Below, one piece after another: positions 38,152 to 46,355 of a stretch of DNA of 64,000 bases; the stretch's first letter is position 1, and the number at the start of each line of letters is the position of its first letter. Position numbers and translations under genes: made by a program. Under the pieces are notes generated by a model. That model was not told the origin of the DNA, did no database searches, and saw only the letters and a program-made list of their open reading frames with translations. The DNA comes from Promethearchaeota archaeon. Its GTDB lineage: Archaea; Asgardarchaeota; Heimdallarchaeia; Hodarchaeales; Hodarchaeaceae. The stretch lies in NCBI GenBank assembly GCA_048938105.1, contig JBHLMN010000011.1, forward strand, positions 96,001-160,000. Direction: 5' to 3'.

Positions 38152-41100
38152 TTGGAGCTATTAATCTTGTCCCATCAGCTCTTAAGGGAATCAAGAACCA
38201 GTCATACTACTCCAATTCCGCGTTATATAGGCATTAATATTGGCTCATTAACGATAAAAAGGGTTATTATTGAGCCATATAATATTTCAGTAGATATAAC
38301 ATCTCACAATGGTCTTCCACTTGAAATCTTAAATGACTATTCTAAAGAGATTGGATTTTTTGGCATATCTGGTAAGATCGGTCATATTTCAGAACCAGCA
38401 GCTATTGAAAGAGCACTAAAAGAATTACAAATATCGTGTGACGCTATAATTTCTCTAGGGGCGGAAGTATTCGTGTTATATCTGGTAAATAAAAAAAATG
38501 AGATTTTCAACGTTATCTCACACAATAAATGCGCGGCGGGAAGTGGAGAGTTTTTGTCTCAACAACTTACAAGAATGAAACTATCACTTGAAGATGGGAT
38601 TCCATTAGGATATAAAGGAAAAACTATTCCATTAGCTTCACGCTGTTCTGTACACTGTAAGACAGATATTACTCACAAACTAAATCGTAACGAGGCTACA
38701 AAAGCCGATATTATCTATTCTGTCATTAATAGTATGGTGTGTAAAGTCATTGCTTTAATAGAAAAAAGCCAGTACCAAGTATCTCGAATCCTATTAATAG
38801 GGGGTGGAGTAAAAAATAAGCTATTGATAAAACTTATTCAACAGCAGCTCTTAAGAAAAACATTGATTACTGTACCCGAGAGCATATATTTTGAAGCTTA
38901 TGGAACTGCACTGCTAGTTCAAGACGATCCTAAATTTAAGTCTCCTCATGTGTCAGTAACGCGAACATTTGAAAATTTACCTCCTCTATCTCAATTTCAA
39001 GATTTAATAACTATTAAACAGGCATCAAAAAATCCAAATGCTCCTGGCCCATATATCCTCGGCATTGATGGTGGCTCAACAACAACTAAAGCAGTTATTC
39101 TATCTAAAACTACCAATGAAATCGTTGCTTCTCATTATATGAGAACTGATGGTGATCCTATTCAAGCTACCAGGGATTGTCTAGCAACGATAATCCAAAA
39201 TCATTCTGACTTTCCCATTATAGCTATTGGTACAACAGGCTCCGCTCGCAAGATCATTGGCGCTTTTACTAGAAGTACTTGTGTTATCAATGAAATTTCA
39301 GCGCATGCGCGAGGTGCAGTAGAATTTAATCCCACAGTGGACACGATTTTTGAAATCGGCGGCCAAGATTCAAAGTATATATTTCTTAATCAATCTGTAC
39401 CAATATCTTATGCTATGAATGAAGCATGTTCAGCTGGTACTGGAAGCTTTATTGAAGAAGCAGCTAAAGGGGATCTTAATCTAGATGTTCATAAGATAGC
39501 CAATGTTGCATTTTCTGCACAAGCTCCGGTAAAGTTTAAAGATAATTGTGCGGCGTTTATAAATACTGATATTAGAACAGCTTTACAAGAGGGATATAGC
39601 CAGGCAGATATTGTTGCTGGAGTTATTTACTCCATTGTTAACAATTACTTAATTAAAGTAAAGGGAAAACGTCGTGTTGGCAAGATTATTTTCTTCCAAG
39701 GGGGGGTTGCATTAAACTTAGCCATTTCAAATGCATTTGCTTATGCAACACAACGCCCGATTATTGTACCACCATTCCCAGAACTAATGGGAGCGTATGG
39801 TATCGCATTATTAACAAAAGAGCGACTAGAAAAAGGAAATATTACTAAAGTAAATGTCAACCTCTCTACTTTTATACAAAGATCTTTTCACAAAGTAGGA
39901 AATTTTACTTGTCAATCGTGTACAAACCAATGTATTATTGATAGATTAGAAGTTGATGGAAAAAAATATCCTTTTGGTGGGCGATGTAGCCGATGGGAGC
40001 GAGAATGGCAACAAAAAAGAGCTAGTAGAGAGATTACAGACTATACTCAGCAAAGAAATGACTTCTTATTGAAACAAGAAACAACCACTCTTCCGTCAAA
40101 TGTTCGAGGAACAGTAGGAATTCCAAGAGCGTTAATGAACCATTCACTTTTTCCATTGTTTAACACTTTCTTTAGAGAATTAGGATTTGAAGTAGTACTT
40201 TCTGACACATCACTAAAGGGATCAGAAATAACTGATTCTGCTTTTTGTTACCCCATTGAGATAGCTCACGGAGCCGTCTTTGATCTCATCAATAATAAAA
40301 ATATAGATTTGATTTTTATTCCACATATACAAAAAATGCCTACTTACAAAAAAAACCATGATCATACGCATCTTTGTTATTTTAACCAAGGATTTCCCTA
40401 TATTGCTCAACAAAAATTTGAAGACTCAGCTGTTGAGTTTCTTACTCCAACCTTAAATTTTAGTGGAGGATATACCTCTACTACAGGTTTAATTTCCCTA
40501 TATAATGAGTTAAATGTCACTAAATCAGAAGCTCAAAGTGCATATACTAAAGCTGTTATTCGACAACAAAAAATTGAAAGTGAATTACAAAAAATGGGTA
40601 TGCAAGCTCTACAGAAGGTTATTAACGATTCAAATGACTTGGGAGTCATCCTTGTAGGACGTAGTTACAATGCATTCCCTCCTGAAACATCAATGAATAT
40701 TTCAAAAAAACTGACCAGCCAAGGAATTACAGTTATCCCATTCGATTGTTTAGAACGATATGATAATGAGGAAAATTTCTGGTATTTCAGTAATTTAATC
40801 ATGAATGCTGCTACACTCTCAATCAGATTTCCAAATATTTTTTTACTTTACATTTCGAATTTCAGTTGTGGAATAGATGCTTTCACTCAATTCTTTTTAC
40901 ATAAGGAATTAGGTGAAAAACCATATCTACTACTAGAAATTGATTCTCACACAGCAGACGCAGGTATATTCACACGAGTTGAAGCTTTTATTGAAATTAT
41001 CCGTAATTATTCAAAACAACACGTATCAGTAAAGAAAACACAATTTAATCCCAGCAAAGTTGTTTTCAGAAGCAGCAAAGCATATGTATCAACAAATAAT

Positions 41101-42339
41101 GGCGAATTACTTCCTATAACTGACCCTCGTGTTAAAATTTATTTTCCAGCCATAAGCAAATATCATACCCAAGCAATTGCTATGGTACTCCGTTGGAAAG
41201 GAATCCATGGATATGAAGCTGAGACACCAAATGATGAAATCTTAAGCTTAGGGAAAAAAAATGTGACTGGGAAAGAATGTGTTCCTTTACCAATCACCAT
41301 TGGCCAAATGCTATCAGCACATAAACAAAGAAAGTCTAATGAAGTGGTAGGATTCTACATGCTTGAGGCAGGGGCACCATGCGTGATTATTGCCTATAAA
41401 CGATTTTTCAACCAAGTTATCACTGAAAATAACCTTAAAAATCTCTTTATATTTGACCCACAAGCATCAGATAATTATTATGGCTTTGGGAATTCATTAT
41501 TAATGTCTATACCATTAGGATTAGTGCTAGCTGATTTGGTTAACGAGATAAAATCAGCATTATTGGTTGTAAGCCCAGAAAGTTTACCACTTTTTGAAGA
41601 GCATTGGGACGAGTTGATAACAAACTCAACAACCAAAAGAGAGTTCAACAAACAACTCAAAAGATTTATTCAACGATTATCAGAATATCCTTGTTCTAAA
41701 AGACCTAGTCAATGTCCAAGAGTTTTAATGACTGGAGATTTCTTTTTTCGGTTTGATGAGTTCTTAAAACAATCGATCGATGAGATTTATGCACGAAATG
41801 GTATTGTCATAAAAAATGTTGATGTAACTGAACTTGCACTGTTTGCACTTCATGATAATTTGCGAAGAATGGCACAAGACTGGAATAAAAATCCTGAAGG
41901 ACTAAAAACTGTGATATTCGCACTTGTGAATTATAAAGATAAAGGTAAAAAATACCTCTCCTTCTTGACTGGTTTTAAAATCCTCCAACGAACTGAAAAC
42001 AAACTCCGCAAAGAATTTGAAAAGACTGGTTTATTGTTTGCAGAGAAAAATCATGTTTACAATATTTTAAACTTTGGAAAGGATTATATTACTCCAAATA
42101 TTGTTGGTGAAGCCATTATTACCATTGGTAAGTCCATTGAAGCAAGTATCCAAAAATATGCTGGTGTAATTGTCATTGGCCCATTTAATTGTATGGCATT
42201 TCGTGTTTCTGAAGGGATTTTAAAACCTATGACAAAAAAATTAGGAATCCCGTTTTTGTTCTATGAAGCTGACTGTTCTCCAATTCCAAGCACATTATTA
42301 CGTCAGATTCAAGTACATATTCACCAAGCCACGCGTTAA
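38152..42339 (+). CDS. Acyl-CoA dehydratase activase-related protein (two BcrAD/BadFG ASKHA ATPase domains plus DUF2229-like region)
   Basis: GINIGS, KCAAGSG, RCSVHC; LGIDGGSTTTK, EIGGQDSK, NEACSAGTGSF, CQSCTNQC, GIPRAL, FSCGID, LEIDSH, GPFNC. Confidence 0.9.
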   Translation: MELLILSHQLLRESRTSHTTPIPRYIGINIGSLTIKRVIIEPYNISVDITSHNGLPLEILNDYSKEIGFFGISGKIGHISEPAAIERALKELQISCDAIISLGAEVFVLYLVNKKNEIFNVISHNKCAAGSGEFLSQQLTRMKLSLEDGIPLGYKGKTIPLASRCSVHCKTDITHKLNRNEATKADIIYSVINSMVCKVIALIEKSQYQVSRILLIGGGVKNKLLIKLIQQQLLRKTLITVPESIYFEAYGTALLVQDDPKFKSPHVSVTRTFENLPPLSQFQDLITIKQASKNPNAPGPYILGIDGGSTTTKAVILSKTTNEIVASHYMRTDGDPIQATRDCLATIIQNHSDFPIIAIGTTGSARKIIGAFTRSTCVINEISAHARGAVEFNPTVDTIFEIGGQDSKYIFLNQSVPISYAMNEACSAGTGSFIEEAAKGDLNLDVHKIANVAFSAQAPVKFKDNCAAFINTDIRTALQEGYSQADIVAGVIYSIVNNYLIKVKGKRRVGKIIFFQGGVALNLAISNAFAYATQRPIIVPPFPELMGAYGIALLTKERLEKGNITKVNVNLSTFIQRSFHKVGNFTCQSCTNQCIIDRLEVDGKKYPFGGRCSRWEREWQQKRASREITDYTQQRNDFLLKQETTTLPSNVRGTVGIPRALMNHSLFPLFNTFFRELGFEVVLSDTSLKGSEITDSAFCYPIEIAHGAVFDLINNKNIDLIFIPHIQKMPTYKKNHDHTHLCYFNQGFPYIAQQKFEDSAVEFLTPTLNFSGGYTSTTGLISLYNELNVTKSEAQSAYTKAVIRQQKIESELQKMGMQALQKVINDSNDLGVILVGRSYNAFPPETSMNISKKLTSQGITVIPFDCLERYDNEENFWYFSNLIMNAATLSIRFPNIFLLYISNFSCGIDAFTQFFLHKELGEKPYLLLEIDSHTADAGIFTRVEAFIEIIRNYSKQHVSVKKTQFNPSKVVFRSSKAYVSTNNGELLPITDPRVKIYFPAISKYHTQAIAMVLRWKGIHGYEAETPNDEILSLGKKNVTGKECVPLPITIGQMLSAHKQRKSNEVVGFYMLEAGAPCVIIAYKRFFNQVITENNLKNLFIFDPQASDNYYGFGNSLLMSIPLGLVLADLVNEIKSALLVVSPESLPLFEEHWDELITNSTTKREFNKQLKRFIQRLSEYPCSKRPSQCPRVLMTGDFFFRFDEFLKQSIDEIYARNGIVIKNVDVTELALFALHDNLRRMAQDWNKNPEGLKTVIFALVNYKDKGKKYLSFLTGFKILQRTENKLRKEFEKTGLLFAEKNHVYNILNFGKDYITPNIVGEAIITIGKSIEASIQKYAGVIVIGPFNCMAFRVSEGILKPMTKKLGIPFLFYEADCSPIPSTLLRQIQVHIHQATR

Positions 42340-42504: not shown

Positions 42505-43062
42505 ATGCAAGACAAAATTATCACTATTTTGAATAAAACAGCTACAGGCAGTAAGAAAGAACGAATTCTCCTGACACCTATTGGAGGAGGAGCCTTTATC
42601 ATCTTTAGTTTATCTTTAATTTTAATTTCTCTTGTGATAGACGAAGTATTGTGTTTTCCTAGACTCCTTCTCAAGCCAAACAATCTACTGATATCAATAC
42701 CTATTATCACACTAGGATTATTTTTAATAGTATGGTCATCCTTGCTTTTCGCTAAAGCGAAAGGAACACCTGTACCTCTTTCTCCTCCTAAAAAGCTAGT
42801 AAATACTGGACCCTATACTTATATTAGAAATCCAATTGTGGTGGGTTATATCTTGATATTTTGGGGGATTGGATTTTTATTAGAATCAATTTCTCTTATA
42901 ATTTTCATCACTCCAATATTCTTTCTACTTCTTATTCTAGAGATAAAACTGATCGAAGAACCAGAATTAGAGAAACGTCTGGGAAAAGAATACTTGGATT
43001 ATAAGAAAAGAGTCCCCATGTTCATTCCAAGGTTGAAAAGGAAAATCAAGAAATTATCGTGA
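42505..43062 (+). CDS. Isoprenylcysteine carboxyl methyltransferase / PEMT family membrane protein
   Basis: GTPVPLSPPKKLVNTGPYTYIRNP, EEPELEKRLGKEYLDYKKRVPMFIP. Confidence 0.9.
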   Translation: MQDKIITILNKTATGSKKERILLTPIGGGAFIIFSLSLILISLVIDEVLCFPRLLLKPNNLLISIPIITLGLFLIVWSSLLFAKAKGTPVPLSPPKKLVNTGPYTYIRNPIVVGYILIFWGIGFLLESISLIIFITPIFFLLLILEIKLIEEPELEKRLGKEYLDYKKRVPMFIPRLKRKIKKLS

Positions 43063-43462: not shown

Positions 43463-44356
43463 ATGGAAAGACGAGGGATTGTATTTTGTCTGGTGATGGG
43501 AGTATTTCTAACCTATTTTTTGCCAACTAATGCAGGAGTAGCAGAAATACAGGACAGACTCCTTCTAGCTAGCACATTCTACGAGCTAGGATATGAAACA
43601 ACAAAGACATATCATCGAGGTGGATCATTGACATTAAATGTGAACTGCTCTGGATCTACTTTTGGTTTATATTCGGCAAAAATTAATCTACATTTTACGG
43701 GGGAAGATAGCTATTATTACTATCGGATAAATGGGGGAACTGAACAATCTGGGGGAGCAAAACCAGGATGTGAATTCTTTACTGGATGGCAAGAAAGGTC
43801 TCTTGAACCTGGTTTCTTCCGAGAGGGAAATAACAGCCTCCAAATTCTTGTTTATAACTGTCCGATAAGTGATCAAACATCAAGTCTAAATAAATATCTA
43901 ATCATCCTGCCAGATTCGTATATCGAGATTTATGATGCCTCAGCAACAGAAAGTAATTCACTGTCTGAATCTTTAACCACTACCATAACAGTCGTATCTT
44001 CGGAAACTTCTGTCTTGTCTTCTTCCATAGATGGGTTTATAGGGGGATTAATAGTAGGTGCAGTCTTGACTGGAGGCATTTTAGCTGGGTGGTATTTTTT
44101 ATACTCTAAAAGAAATGGAATGAAAGCTCCTGCCAAACGATTCGTCTCACGAATCCCAATAAACCATATCTGTAGTATCTGTAAGCAAAATATTATGACA
44201 GATCAGCTGATCGAGTGTCCTAATTGCCAAAACGCATTTCATGAAACCCACTTCGCCGAAGCCATTAAAACGACGGGCCAATGTCCGATCTGTAAGAGTA
44301 ATATCATTACCATGGATAGTGGGTACACTACATGGTCACAGGAAAATGATAAATAA
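43463..44356 (+). CDS. Single-pass membrane protein: signal peptide, beta-rich ectodomain, Ser/Thr stalk, TM, cytoplasmic RING-like zinc finger
   Basis: MERRGIVFCLVMGVFL...TNA signal; SESLTTTITVVSSETSVLSSS stalk; Gly-rich TM followed by KRNGMK; C-x2-C-x11-C-x2-C-x4-H-x2-H-x10-C-x2-C at 44171-44293. Confidence 0.8.
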   Translation: MERRGIVFCLVMGVFLTYFLPTNAGVAEIQDRLLLASTFYELGYETTKTYHRGGSLTLNVNCSGSTFGLYSAKINLHFTGEDSYYYYRINGGTEQSGGAKPGCEFFTGWQERSLEPGFFREGNNSLQILVYNCPISDQTSSLNKYLIILPDSYIEIYDASATESNSLSESLTTTITVVSSETSVLSSSIDGFIGGLIVGAVLTGGILAGWYFLYSKRNGMKAPAKRFVSRIPINHICSICKQNIMTDQLIECPNCQNAFHETHFAEAIKTTGQCPICKSNIITMDSGYTTWSQENDK

Positions 44357-44399
44357 CAAAAAAAGGCTAAATCATTAAGAAATGTGCCCAATCTAGCGT

Positions 44400-45437
44400 A
44401 TGGATTCCCCAATCAATGAACTGGTTCTTCTAATGGAATATAAAGACCTTGAGAACTGTAAATTGTGTGCCTGGGAATGTGGAGTCGATCGCTTAGCAGG
44501 GGAACAGGGAGTCTGTATGATGGGGCTTCCAGAAGTAGCCAGCTGCCAACTTCACCCTGCTCCACCACAATCATACACTGTGTTCATGTGTGGATGTCCC
44601 TTCAAGTGCCTCAATTGTCAGAACTGGCAAATCGCTCACTATCCAGTCATCCAAAGCCCGATGAAGGGAATGGTTAATCCTGAACATATTGCTCGAATTG
44701 GGGTTCAAGCAATAAATTCTAGTGCTGGCCAACTTATTGGTGCAGACCGATTCTTTTTCAGTGGCGGTTCTCCGACTGTTGCTCTCCCTTGGATTGAAGA
44801 TGTTGTTCGATATGTTAAAACTATTGATCCTAAAATGAAAATTAATTTTGATACGAATGGTTTCCCCTCTAGGAGGAGTTTTCAACGGATTCTCTCCTTT
44901 TCGGACTCATTAACATTTGACATTAAAGCCTACAATGATGAAGTTCATCGAGCTTTAACTGGCGCGCCAGTGGAGCCTGTGTTAGCTAATGCGGAGGAAA
45001 TGGCCAGACATAGAGATCAGTTATGGGAGTTTAGAGTCTTAGTTATACCAAGAATCGTTGATCTCCCAGAAATTCAAGCTATAATGGAATTCATTGTCAG
45101 TTTAGATGAAACATTACCAACGTCTCTTCTCACATTCCGTCCCAATTATTGTTTAGATATCCATCTGGGAGCATCAAGGAAATTAATGGAAGAAGCCGTG
45201 AATCTTGCTCGAAAGATAGGGTTAGAAAACGTTCATTGGGCAGGTTTTTTGAATATTCCTGGTGAAAATCCTTCTGTTCCCCCACACTTTGTAGCTAAAT
45301 TTACCCATCAACATGCAGCTGTTGCAGCCTTTTATGCACAACGAGCTGGGTGTGTAAGAATCCAACGGAATTGTGGAAAGTGTGACTCTAATCTTTCTTG
45401 TGATTTGAAGGGCTATATCCCTCATCAAAGTACTTAA
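44400..45437 (+). CDS. Radical SAM protein (PFL-activase/PflX-like)
   Basis: N-terminal CKLCAWECGVDR, GCPFKCLNCQNW, FSGGSPT, FDTNG, FDIKA; extra C-terminal Cys cluster. Confidence 0.88.
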   Translation: MDSPINELVLLMEYKDLENCKLCAWECGVDRLAGEQGVCMMGLPEVASCQLHPAPPQSYTVFMCGCPFKCLNCQNWQIAHYPVIQSPMKGMVNPEHIARIGVQAINSSAGQLIGADRFFFSGGSPTVALPWIEDVVRYVKTIDPKMKINFDTNGFPSRRSFQRILSFSDSLTFDIKAYNDEVHRALTGAPVEPVLANAEEMARHRDQLWEFRVLVIPRIVDLPEIQAIMEFIVSLDETLPTSLLTFRPNYCLDIHLGASRKLMEEAVNLARKIGLENVHWAGFLNIPGENPSVPPHFVAKFTHQHAAVAAFYAQRAGCVRIQRNCGKCDSNLSCDLKGYIPHQST

Positions 45438-45461
45438 ACCATCATTGACCAGGCTAGTTAC

Positions 45462-46355
45462 TTAAAAGAATTCTTTTAATTTAACGACAATTTCTTTTAT
45501 AGGATCTAATTTATTTAATGTGTAAAAATGGAGGCCTGGTGCACCTCCCTCAAGAAGTTCAACACATTGGTTGATAGCAATCTCAATTCCTTTTCTCTCA
45601 GTTGTCTTTAGGTCGTCCTCTAACGGCCCAAAGATGTCATGGAAACGCTGAGGGATGGTAGCTCCACAAAAGGCGCAAAAATTCTTTAAATTCTTGAAGT
45701 TGAAAACTGGAAGGATACCTGGAATAACTCTATTATTGATACTTATTTTGTGAAGACGATCCACATAATCAAAGTAGTCTTTGTTTTCATAGAACAGCTG
45801 TGTGATAATAAACTCACCCCCATGTTCTATCTTATTCTTTAGATATTTAATATCAATCTCCTTGCTTAGAGCTTCAGGATGGCCTTCTGGAAATCCTGCA
45901 ACTCCACAAGAAAAATAATTGCCATAGAATTCTGATACAAGATCACAAAGCTGATAAGCGTACTCTAAACCATTGGGTGTAGGTTTCCACGTCTTAACAC
46001 CCTTGGGTGGGTCACCCCGTAGTGCAAGAATATTGACTATCCCATTAGCTTTCATTGTATCCAGTATATCAATCAGATCTTGTTTGGAATGTCCAACACA
46101 TGTTATGTGGTGAATGGTAGGTATGTTAAAACGAGTTTGAAGTTCAGTGGTGATCTCCATTGTTTTATCCCGTGTACTACCTCCCGCGCCATAGGTGACT
46201 GATATAAAATCGGCTCCAAGTTTTACAAGTTCACCTACTACATGAAAAAAGGAATCTAATTCAAATTGTTTTTTGGGAGGAAAGAACTCAAATGAAAGAG
46301 TTATTTCTTTTTGTTTGAAAATATCAATTATCTTCTGTATTCGCATAAGTTTCAA
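45462..46355 (-). CDS. metF: 5,10-methylenetetrahydrofolate reductase
   Basis: LSFEFFPPK, SVTYGAGG, HITC, ILALRGDPP, AGFPEGHP, ITQLFY, GLHFYTLN. Confidence 0.95.
   Translation of the reverse strand: MKLMRIQKIIDIFKQKEITLSFEFFPPKKQFELDSFFHVVGELVKLGADFISVTYGAGGSTRDKTMEITTELQTRFNIPTIHHITCVGHSKQDLIDILDTMKANGIVNILALRGDPPKGVKTWKPTPNGLEYAYQLCDLVSEFYGNYFSCGVAGFPEGHPEALSKEIDIKYLKNKIEHGGEFIITQLFYENKDYFDYVDRLHKISINNRVIPGILPVFNFKNLKNFCAFCGATIPQRFHDIFGPLEDDLKTTERKGIEIAINQCVELLEGGAPGLHFYTLNKLDPIKEIVVKLKEFF

Follow-up and report, generated by a model that had tools for sequence, protein, structure and literature searches.

A candidate receptor-like, membrane-anchored RING protein with a carbohydrate-binding-module-like ectodomain in a Hodarchaeota-type Asgard archaeon

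Asgard archaea possess a working E1/E2/RING ubiquitination cascade and ubiquitin-binding parts of the ESCRT machinery (PMC5654768; bioRxiv 10.1101/2023.07.25.550441; PMC9192718); the literature that we searched does not address the identity of the proteins tagged at the membrane or of the ligases responsible. The closest described archaeal proteins are the small RING finger protein (srfp) E3 ligases of ubiquitin/E1/E2 operons, such as those of Caldiarchaeum subterraneum (PMC5654768) and Helarchaeia (RING E3; bioRxiv 10.1101/2023.07.25.550441), which are small and soluble. The closest layouts are found among the receptor-type ligases of eukaryotes, namely, the PA-TM-RING proteins (RNF13, GRAIL/RNF128 and plant RMR1) and RNF43/ZNRF3, in which a signal peptide, a ligand-binding ectodomain and a single transmembrane helix are followed by a cytosolic RING-H2-type finger. 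Our literature searches turned up no account of Asgard RING proteins that span the membrane, which does not prove that such an account does not exist. Here we analyze a gene with this order of parts that is located at positions 43463..44356, on the forward strand, of a 64,000-nucleotide stretch of a Hodarchaeales genome (GenBank assembly GCA_048938105.1, contig JBHLMN010000011.1, positions 96,001 to 160,000; hereinafter, the window). The open reading frame, the exact coordinates of which were confirmed, encodes 297 amino acids. We interpret the product as a type I single-pass protein, specifically, a receptor-like, membrane-anchored RING E3 with a predicted ligase activity, and assign to this interpretation a probability of roughly 50%.

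The evidence starts with the C-terminal zinc finger, in which the eight ligands noticed in the initial annotation of the sequence are all present (C237-x2-C240-x11-C252-x2-C255-x4-H260-x2-H263-x10-C274-x2-C277). These ligands are invariant in an alignment (A3) of 16 related fingers that consists of this finger and 15 relatives, hereinafter type A, including the RING of the ubiquitin/E1/E2 cluster in the same genome; because of this invariance and the domain-wise conservation described below, the finger is not a chance pattern. Comparison of the A3 profile with the PDB sequences retrieved RNF4 (E-value of 1.2e-9), RNF24 (1.9e-9), and ARK2C/RNF165 and Arkadia (about 1e-8), with further matches to EL5, HRD1, gp78, RLIM, RNF38, RNF13 and ZNRF3. 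The AlphaFold2 (AF2) model of the finger, with a predicted local distance difference test score (pLDDT) of about 90, features a beta-beta-alpha core, with a hairpin at residues 249-251/258-260 and a helix at residues 261-271, between ligands 6 and 7. In a Foldseek search of the PDB with this model, all rows above rank 50 are RING/U-box domains or RING-bearing complexes, many of them superimposed at a root mean square deviation (rmsd) of 0.9-2.5 Å over 45-52 residues; the small size of the domain limits the E-values to 0.01-0.1. An independent fold search agreed, with all 50 matches listed being RING/U-box domains or RING-bearing complexes with Z-scores from 6.6 to 4.3, for example, the Prp19 U-box (Z 6.6, 1.2 Å, 48 residues) and RNF4 (Z 5.0, 1.8 Å, 49 residues). 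Structure comparison of this kind had been proposed as a check of the RING assignment, and both searches return RING/U-box folds almost exclusively. On the strength of profile comparison and the modelled fold, the finger is a RING and a sequence homologue of the RING-H2 E3s.

The finger does not follow the canonical C3H2C3 ligand order (C3-x-H4-x2-H5-x2-C6), the order here being C4H2C2. In the alignment to RNF24, the column of the canonical His4 contains Asn257, and the ligand comes instead from Cys252, located three residues upstream in the CPNC knuckle; under this alignment, C237, C240, H260 and H263 would form zinc site 1, and C252, C255, C274 and C277 would form site 2. There is a precedent for such a variant: an extra Cys before ligand 3 ('C3B') has been described for the Caldiarchaeum RING, an active E3 (Hennell James et al., PMC5654768).

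The remaining parts of the protein comply with a type I membrane topology. The gene callers place the start at Met12, which would yield a 286-aa protein, but the N-termini of the homologues align from Met1, in support of the longer form. Hydropathy analysis detects two hydrophobic segments, at residues about 4-24 and 184-214, and the N-terminus combines a basic n-region (MERRG), a hydrophobic core and a TNA/G cleavage-type motif. Serine and threonine account for 17 of the 32 residues in the stalk; the membrane helix, GFIGGLIVGAVLTGGILAGWYFLY, contains GxxxG motifs at positions 191, 195 and 205, and its glycine pattern is retained in the aligned homologues P0003, P0004 and P0005. The 21 residues that follow the helix include six Lys/Arg and no Asp/Glu, compared to no Lys/Arg and two Asp/Glu among the 15 residues that precede it. 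The signal peptide, Ser/Thr-rich stalk, GxxxG-containing helix and basic stop-transfer segment of the initial annotation are thus all borne out by hydropathy, composition, and motif and charge counts. The topology assignment is based on hydropathy, charge and the AF2 helix; an outside location of the finger was considered as well, and the charge distribution, by the positive-inside rule only, predicts a cytoplasmic location for the finger, as originally implied. Identity between orthologues differs sharply by part, with 76-83% for the finger, 59-80% for the ectodomain, and 17-36% for the stalk and juxtamembrane linkers (17-35% for the stalk alone). Judging from these sequence identities, both ends of the protein, the finger and the ectodomain, are under selection. 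A chance open reading frame was considered and is ruled out by the existence of homologues and by this part-by-part pattern of conservation.

The beta-rich ectodomain with three cysteines that was noticed originally (C62, C103 and C133) is modelled by AF2 as a beta-sandwich of about 135 residues, with pLDDT of about 90. The search of residues 25-170 against Pfam yielded no family match at E≤10, not even to any carbohydrate-binding module (CBM) family, and the NCBIfam and PADLOC searches with the protein and the ectodomain gave no matches either; by these sequence comparisons, the ectodomain is new. At the level of the modelled structure, the best match (VIA) is to BcsB, namely, to its first carbohydrate-binding domain (6yg8_A; Z 12.1, rmsd 3.6 Å, 129 aa), and the CBM35, CBM36 and CBM6 modules score at Z 9-10 (CBM35 3zm8, Z 10.2; CBM36 7ay3, Z 9.3). 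Foldseek against the PDB retrieved domain III of polysaccharide lyase family 4, BcsB and CBM35/61, at E-values of 1.7e-4 and weaker; an Atlas structure search returned BcsB with a TM-score of 0.68 and CBM_35 at 0.57-0.62; and a language-model feature search gave scores of at most 0.86, which we treat as leads only. The family profile of the ectodomain further extends to P0024, which is a surface protein containing CARDB, PKD, 'CBM-like' and CBM60 domains. In the model, the ectodomain is a CBM-like jelly roll, and carbohydrate binding would be its predicted function. With regard to the cysteines, both C103 and C133 are present in six relatives and neither is present in 11, with no mixed cases. 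Such co-occurrence is compatible with an extracellular domain in which C103 and C133 probably are disulfide-bonded, although a single clade may account for all six Cys-bearing relatives.

The genome (5.85 Mb in 65 contigs, the window being C61:96001-160000) belongs to an Asgard archaeon of the Hodarchaeota type, with named homologues coming from metagenome-assembled genomes of Candidatus Hodarchaeota, and encodes the machinery that a RING E3 would require. Cultured isolates of Hodarchaeales are reported as well (bioRxiv 10.1101/2025.02.26.640444). A genome-wide search for ubiquitin, E1 and E2, suggested at the outset as a check, detected four UQ_con (E2) matches (C11:114329-114781, C11:125308, C63:202116 and C38:98662) and five ThiF (E1-like) matches above the Pfam cut-offs, ubiquitin at C11:120119 and C63:204714, and three Snf7/ESCRT-III genes. 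Two of the latter (C11:131589-132730) adjoin a gene array on contig C11 that consists of E2 (114374), a 111-aa frame encoding a RING (117581, minus strand), ubiquitin (120119), E1 (120447) and an E2-like protein (125308), followed by ESCRT-III; this gene order is that of an Asgard-type ubiquitin cluster. When the same genome was searched with zf-RING_2, eight fingers were detected, all with the pattern C-x2-C-x11-14-CPxC-x4-H-x2-H-x10-CPxC, with the finger analyzed here ranked fifth, and four of the eight proteins contain hydrophobic segments. The layout also recurs: a type A finger is located behind a membrane helix on other ectodomains, as in P0025 (1497 aa), which contains Ig-like and glycosidase-associated domains.

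Among the E2-contact positions of the finger, the hydrophobic residue between the first two ligands (Ile239), the Pro behind ligand 7 (Pro275) and Ile276 are retained, and a basic residue, Lys278, immediately follows the last Cys. The alignment substantiates the original remark that the helix position typically occupied by the E2-contacting Trp is Ala in this protein (Ala267, in HFAEAIK). With regard to the further proposal that the finger might therefore be an atypical or adaptor RING, the Ala as such is not disqualifying. In this column of the profile alignment, the active E3 RNF4 contains Ser, so that E3 activity does not generally depend on the Trp. For a Trp-to-Ala mutant of Arkadia, a review states only that the structure is kept and does not report on activity. 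The Trp is present in seven relatives, including the operon RING. A short motif ending in Trp (Y-T-T-W, Y-I-T-W, V-S-W or Y-T-S-W) is found in the C-terminal tail of six of the nine Trp-less fingers and in none of the seven Trp-bearing ones, a tally that, being drawn from a small sample of related sequences, is a lead only. The motif stands 8-15 residues behind the finger (in this protein, residues 286-289, window positions 44318-44329). Comparison of these sequences suggests that the tail motif may compensate for the missing RING Trp or may serve as a docking motif.

We further modelled the finger (alignment A3) together with the operon E2, a 151-aa protein that is conserved in 58 of the 60 genomes of the class (alignment A4), using ESMFold2. 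The score was 0.44 (0.41, 0.44 and 0.47 in individual runs) compared to 0.00 for the best control, with at least 87% of the contacts shared between runs and a partner pLDDT of at least 75. Among the complexes and pairs used for calibration, 58 of the 80 solved complexes and two of the 110 mismatched pairs attained the mark, but passes at or below 0.60 comprise only seven of the 80 solved complexes along with both mismatches that passed. Thus, the structure prediction of a RING-E2 complex that had been recommended passes the mark, albeit in the low range of the calibration. Because RING-E2 complexes already have been solved, resemblance to these, and not actual binding, may account for the score, and the modelling lends weak support to the binding of the operon E2 by the finger.

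Under the E3 interpretation, the signal peptide would send the N-terminal domain outside the cell, where the CBM-like beta-sandwich, raised on the Ser/Thr-rich stalk, would bind a glycan or a glycoprotein at the cell surface. The GxxxG-containing membrane helix may pair two copies of the protein. The cytoplasmic RING, of the C-x2-C...CPxC-x4-H-x2-H...CPxC type that is also found in the ubiquitin cluster of this genome, would bring a ubiquitin-charged E2 to the membrane, and the E2 would then tag membrane proteins, either the receptor itself or its neighbours, for turnover via the proteasome/Cdc48 or ESCRT. Ligand binding, dimerization, E2 binding, ligase activity, control by an outside ligand and the fate of the targets are steps that we infer. 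We favour the E3 interpretation because of this architecture, the homology of the finger to the RING-H2 E3s, the precedent of an active variant, the retained E2-contact columns, the ubiquitin machinery of the genome and the recurrence of the layout. A more elaborate version, in which the glycan-binding module controls the RING via a dimerizing helix, the Y-T-T-W tail supplies the Trp and creates a switchable E2 surface, and close archaeal relatives of eukaryotes evolved receptor-type ligases independently, appears to us a doubtful, speculative extension.

Several observations weigh against the E3 interpretation and are best considered along with its main rival, that the finger is a non-catalytic docking module of a surface receptor or adhesin, with the cytoskeleton, the ribosome or a signalling protein as the partner, which we deem unlikely, although it survives better than the other alternatives. 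Throughout the subfamily, the Trp column contains A, T, V or S (HFAE[A/T/V]xK), with Ala267 replacing the E2-contacting residue here, which favours the docking module; at the same time, Ile239, Pro275 and Lys278 are retained and, as indicated above, RNF4 is active with Ser in this column. The Pfam zf-RING_2 model (PF13639) scores only 25.2 bits with the tail alone and 21.8 bits with the whole protein, below the cut-off of 27.3. The close Trp-bearing relatives P0084 and P0065 pass this cut-off, with 38.7 and 30.5 bits, respectively. In the search within the genome, however, the RING of its own ubiquitin cluster (C11:117581) scores only 21.9 bits compared to 25.3 for this finger, so that the sub-threshold score says little, and the finger is clearly homologous both to active RING-H2 E3s and to that cluster RING.

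The best match of the finger in a single-sequence PDB search is aS34 (9fhl chain a; E-value of 1.1e-4), a ribosomal protein of Saccharolobus solfataricus with a two-zinc, RING-like fold (PMC11698992). A RING-like protein that is ribosomal implies that a RING fold alone is no proof of E3 function; in addition, this match hints that archaeal RING-like fingers predate the ubiquitin system or exist apart from it. The conserved Y-T-T-W tail could itself be a docking motif. No ubiquitin-system genes had been noticed in the window, and the searches agree: the UQ_con, ThiF and ubiquitin matches are located on contigs C11, C63, C38, C39, C52 and C32, and there are none on C61, the contig that contains the window. 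Similarly, no conserved neighbourhood with ubiquitin genes was found in the window or around the homologues, the neighbours being unrelated. The same ectodomain family also carries other tails, namely, type B and C fingers, a PLD-like domain or none; the orthologous ectodomains with divergent C4C3/4 fingers, many of which lack the sixth ligand, or with the PLD domain fit a docking role. However, the divergent fingers are themselves related to RING, with a probability of 92% (E-value of 6.5e-7) in the comparison of types B/C with type A by hhalign. The weakness of the docking support counts against the E3 interpretation as well.

A second alternative is that the protein is mainly a surface glycan-binding or envelope protein involved in adhesion or in polysaccharide capture or handling, with a short tail that has no signalling role. 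Of all parts of the protein, the ectodomain is indeed shared most widely within the family, tail-less members (P0018 and P0020) exist, CBM6/35/36 and the BcsB carbohydrate-binding domain have a matching fold, and Ser/Thr-rich stalks are typical of archaeal surface proteins. However, conservation of the finger equals that of the ectodomain, and eight invariant ligands would not be expected in a functionless tail, so we regard this explanation as improbable. The third alternative, a PHD-type or other treble-clef reader, can draw on the ligand spacing, C-x2-C-x11-C-x2-C-x4-H-x2-(H)-x10-C-x2-C, which is close to the PHD consensus (C4HC3) but has His as the sixth ligand, on a Pfam PHD (PF00628) score of 21.2 bits against a cut-off of 24, and on a single PHD among the profile matches (WSTF, 5e-4), but is very improbable given that RING E3s are ahead of PHD by five orders of magnitude in the A3 comparison, that the sole PHD in the two fold-search lists occupies Foldseek rank 50 with 34 columns, and that a helix in this place, between ligands 6 and 7, is characteristic of RING fingers.

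An exhaustive profile search delineated an ectodomain family of about 18 representative clusters. The ectodomain query has matches in two of the 19 other genomes of the genus and in none of the 280 other sampled genomes of the phylum, and a search for paralogues within the genome detected only the gene itself; by these sequence searches, the family does not extend beyond one archaeal genus among the genomes sampled. Tails of type B contain the motif CQLCGxKH...C..CGR..C...F..M..VGR..CPMC, and those of type C contain CQLDNEQH...C..CSR..C..CY...VG...CP(F/Y)C. Type B/C fingers show weak PDB matches to the RING of cellulose synthase, TRIM32 and RING2, and the relatives carrying them score 17-20 bits with Prok-RING_2 (cut-off of 22.4). 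In P0012 (491 aa), a PLD-like nuclease domain (PLDc_2, 1.8e-19; DrmC-like in PADLOC, 1.3e-14) is located behind the membrane helix, so that the same outside sensor is combined with another inside effector. One profile match, P0081 (2004 aa), turned out to be a spurious hit to an RTX-repeat protein.

In the course of this analysis, we also encountered a family of fingers of about 43 residues (P0008-P0091; alignment A5) that includes at least 60 representative clusters, many of them located behind membrane helices. It displays two patterns, CQLCGxKHxAGTPRMQC..CGR..C and CQLDNEQHPATDSAYQC..CSR..C..CY, both ending in CP(M/F/Y)C-x-G-x-L; in Pfam searches, no family passes its cut-off with these fingers, despite the 92% probability for RING in the profile comparison. 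Within the genome itself, there are seven further fingers of the same type as the one analyzed here, three of them in proteins with hydrophobic segments. The loci encoding such fingers include L016 (C43:15024), L017 (C52:275842), L018 (C9:152222), L019 (C31:93096), L021 (C14:284547) and L023 (C39:265999). In L019, the finger is at the C-terminus of a superfamily 1 helicase-like protein; L023 encodes a soluble 306-aa protein, the finger of which (HFAETLK) is the nearest to that of the protein described here.

The neighbours of the gene in the window are metabolic genes, including those for PEMT, radical SAM and MTHFR proteins. A PEMT/ICMT-type membrane methyltransferase is encoded directly upstream (window 42505-43062, forward strand), and in another genome, 3 kb separate a PEMT/ICMT gene (L025 11954-12442) from the homologue P0008, with a 133-aa zf-RING_2 protein also encoded nearby (L025 10688-11089); the shared proximity may be residual synteny. 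Further upstream (window 38152-42339, forward strand) lies a gene for a 1395-aa fusion protein of the CoA-enzyme activase type, with two BcrAD/BadFG ATPase regions, DUF2229 and a part similar to 2-hydroxyglutaryl-CoA dehydratase D. The GC content of window positions 44001-46000 is 0.40, compared to 0.32-0.37 in the flanking windows; this region covers a radical SAM (glycyl-radical activase-like) gene at 44400-45437. The parts of the protein and the evidence that delineates them are compiled in Table 1.

Table 1. Parts of the candidate membrane-anchored RING protein and their coordinates in the window
Feature	Residues	Window positions	Strand	Basis and remarks
Signal peptide	1-24	43463..43534	+	Hydropathy; model helix 3-18; homologue N-termini aligned from Met1
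Ectodomain	25-158	43535..43936	+	Modelled beta-jelly-roll, as in CBM6/35/36 and the carbohydrate-binding domain of BcsB
Ser/Thr-rich stalk	159-190	43937..44032	+	Composition; predicted disordered, pLDDT <50 at 164-188
Transmembrane helix	191-214	44033..44104	+	Hydropathy; AF2 helix 190-217; GxxxG motifs
Basic juxtamembrane linker (stop-transfer)	215-236	44105..44170	+	Charge; pLDDT <50 at 220-232
RING-type cross-brace zinc finger	237-277	44171..44293	+	Ligand order C4H2C2; profile, model and fold searches
C-terminal tail	278-297	44294..44356	+	Lys278; Y-T-T-W motif 286-289; stop codon 44354-44356; low pLDDT

For the membrane tagging step of the Asgard ubiquitin system, a RING that is anchored in the membrane and bears a sensor domain outside the cell is a concrete candidate, and one that is small and expressible. 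Should the protein prove active, surface-to-ubiquitin signalling, a hallmark of eukaryotes, would exist in prokaryotes, and a simple system for its study would become available; should it prove inactive, RING folds would be used in archaea as plain docking modules, as aS34 may be.

Compared with the known systems, the ectodomain shares the jelly-roll fold with CBM6, CBM35, CBM36 and the BcsB domain (6yg8, 3zm8, 7ay3 and 2w46) over about 100-130 residues, at Z 9-12; the differences are that membership in these families is undetected at the sequence level and that the module is mounted here on a membrane anchor with a RING rather than on an enzyme. Prok-RING_1 and Prok-RING_2 are prokaryotic RING families, and some of their bacterial members are membrane proteins. 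These RING-like fingers resemble the present case in their occasional membrane association, but the finger (18.8 bits with Prok-RING_1, cut-off of 29.1) is nearer to the eukaryote-type zf-RING_2.

We place the finger with the srfp-type RINGs of archaea: it is of the same type, with the extra Cys in the CPxC knuckle replacing the canonical fourth-ligand His, and all eight of its ligands align with those of the operon RING of the same genome (the 111-aa frame, C11:117581-117724), which shares the host ubiquitin machinery. Unlike the srfp proteins, which are encoded beside ubiquitin, E1 and E2 and contain the helix Trp, this is a 297-aa membrane protein with an ectodomain that is encoded away from the ubiquitin genes and has Ala in the Trp column along with the Y-T-T-W tail. 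The likeness to RNF43/ZNRF3 and GRAIL/RNF13 that was pointed out originally applies to the order of parts, and the RINGs of RNF13, RMR1 (AT5G66160) and ZNRF3 are among the sequence matches of the finger, but it does not extend to the ectodomain, which is not a protease-associated (PA) domain given the lack of Pfam matches and the CBM-like fold; the protein is therefore an analogous assembly, not a member of the PA-TM-RING family. Because the eukaryotic PA ectodomain is replaced here by a CBM-like jelly roll, the finger is C4H2C2 and the family is limited to one genus, the layout most likely arose by independent assembly rather than by shared descent with the eukaryotic receptor E3s. In this protein, the ectodomain-transmembrane helix-RING arrangement combines a CBM-like head, a Trp-less finger and a Trp-ending tail.

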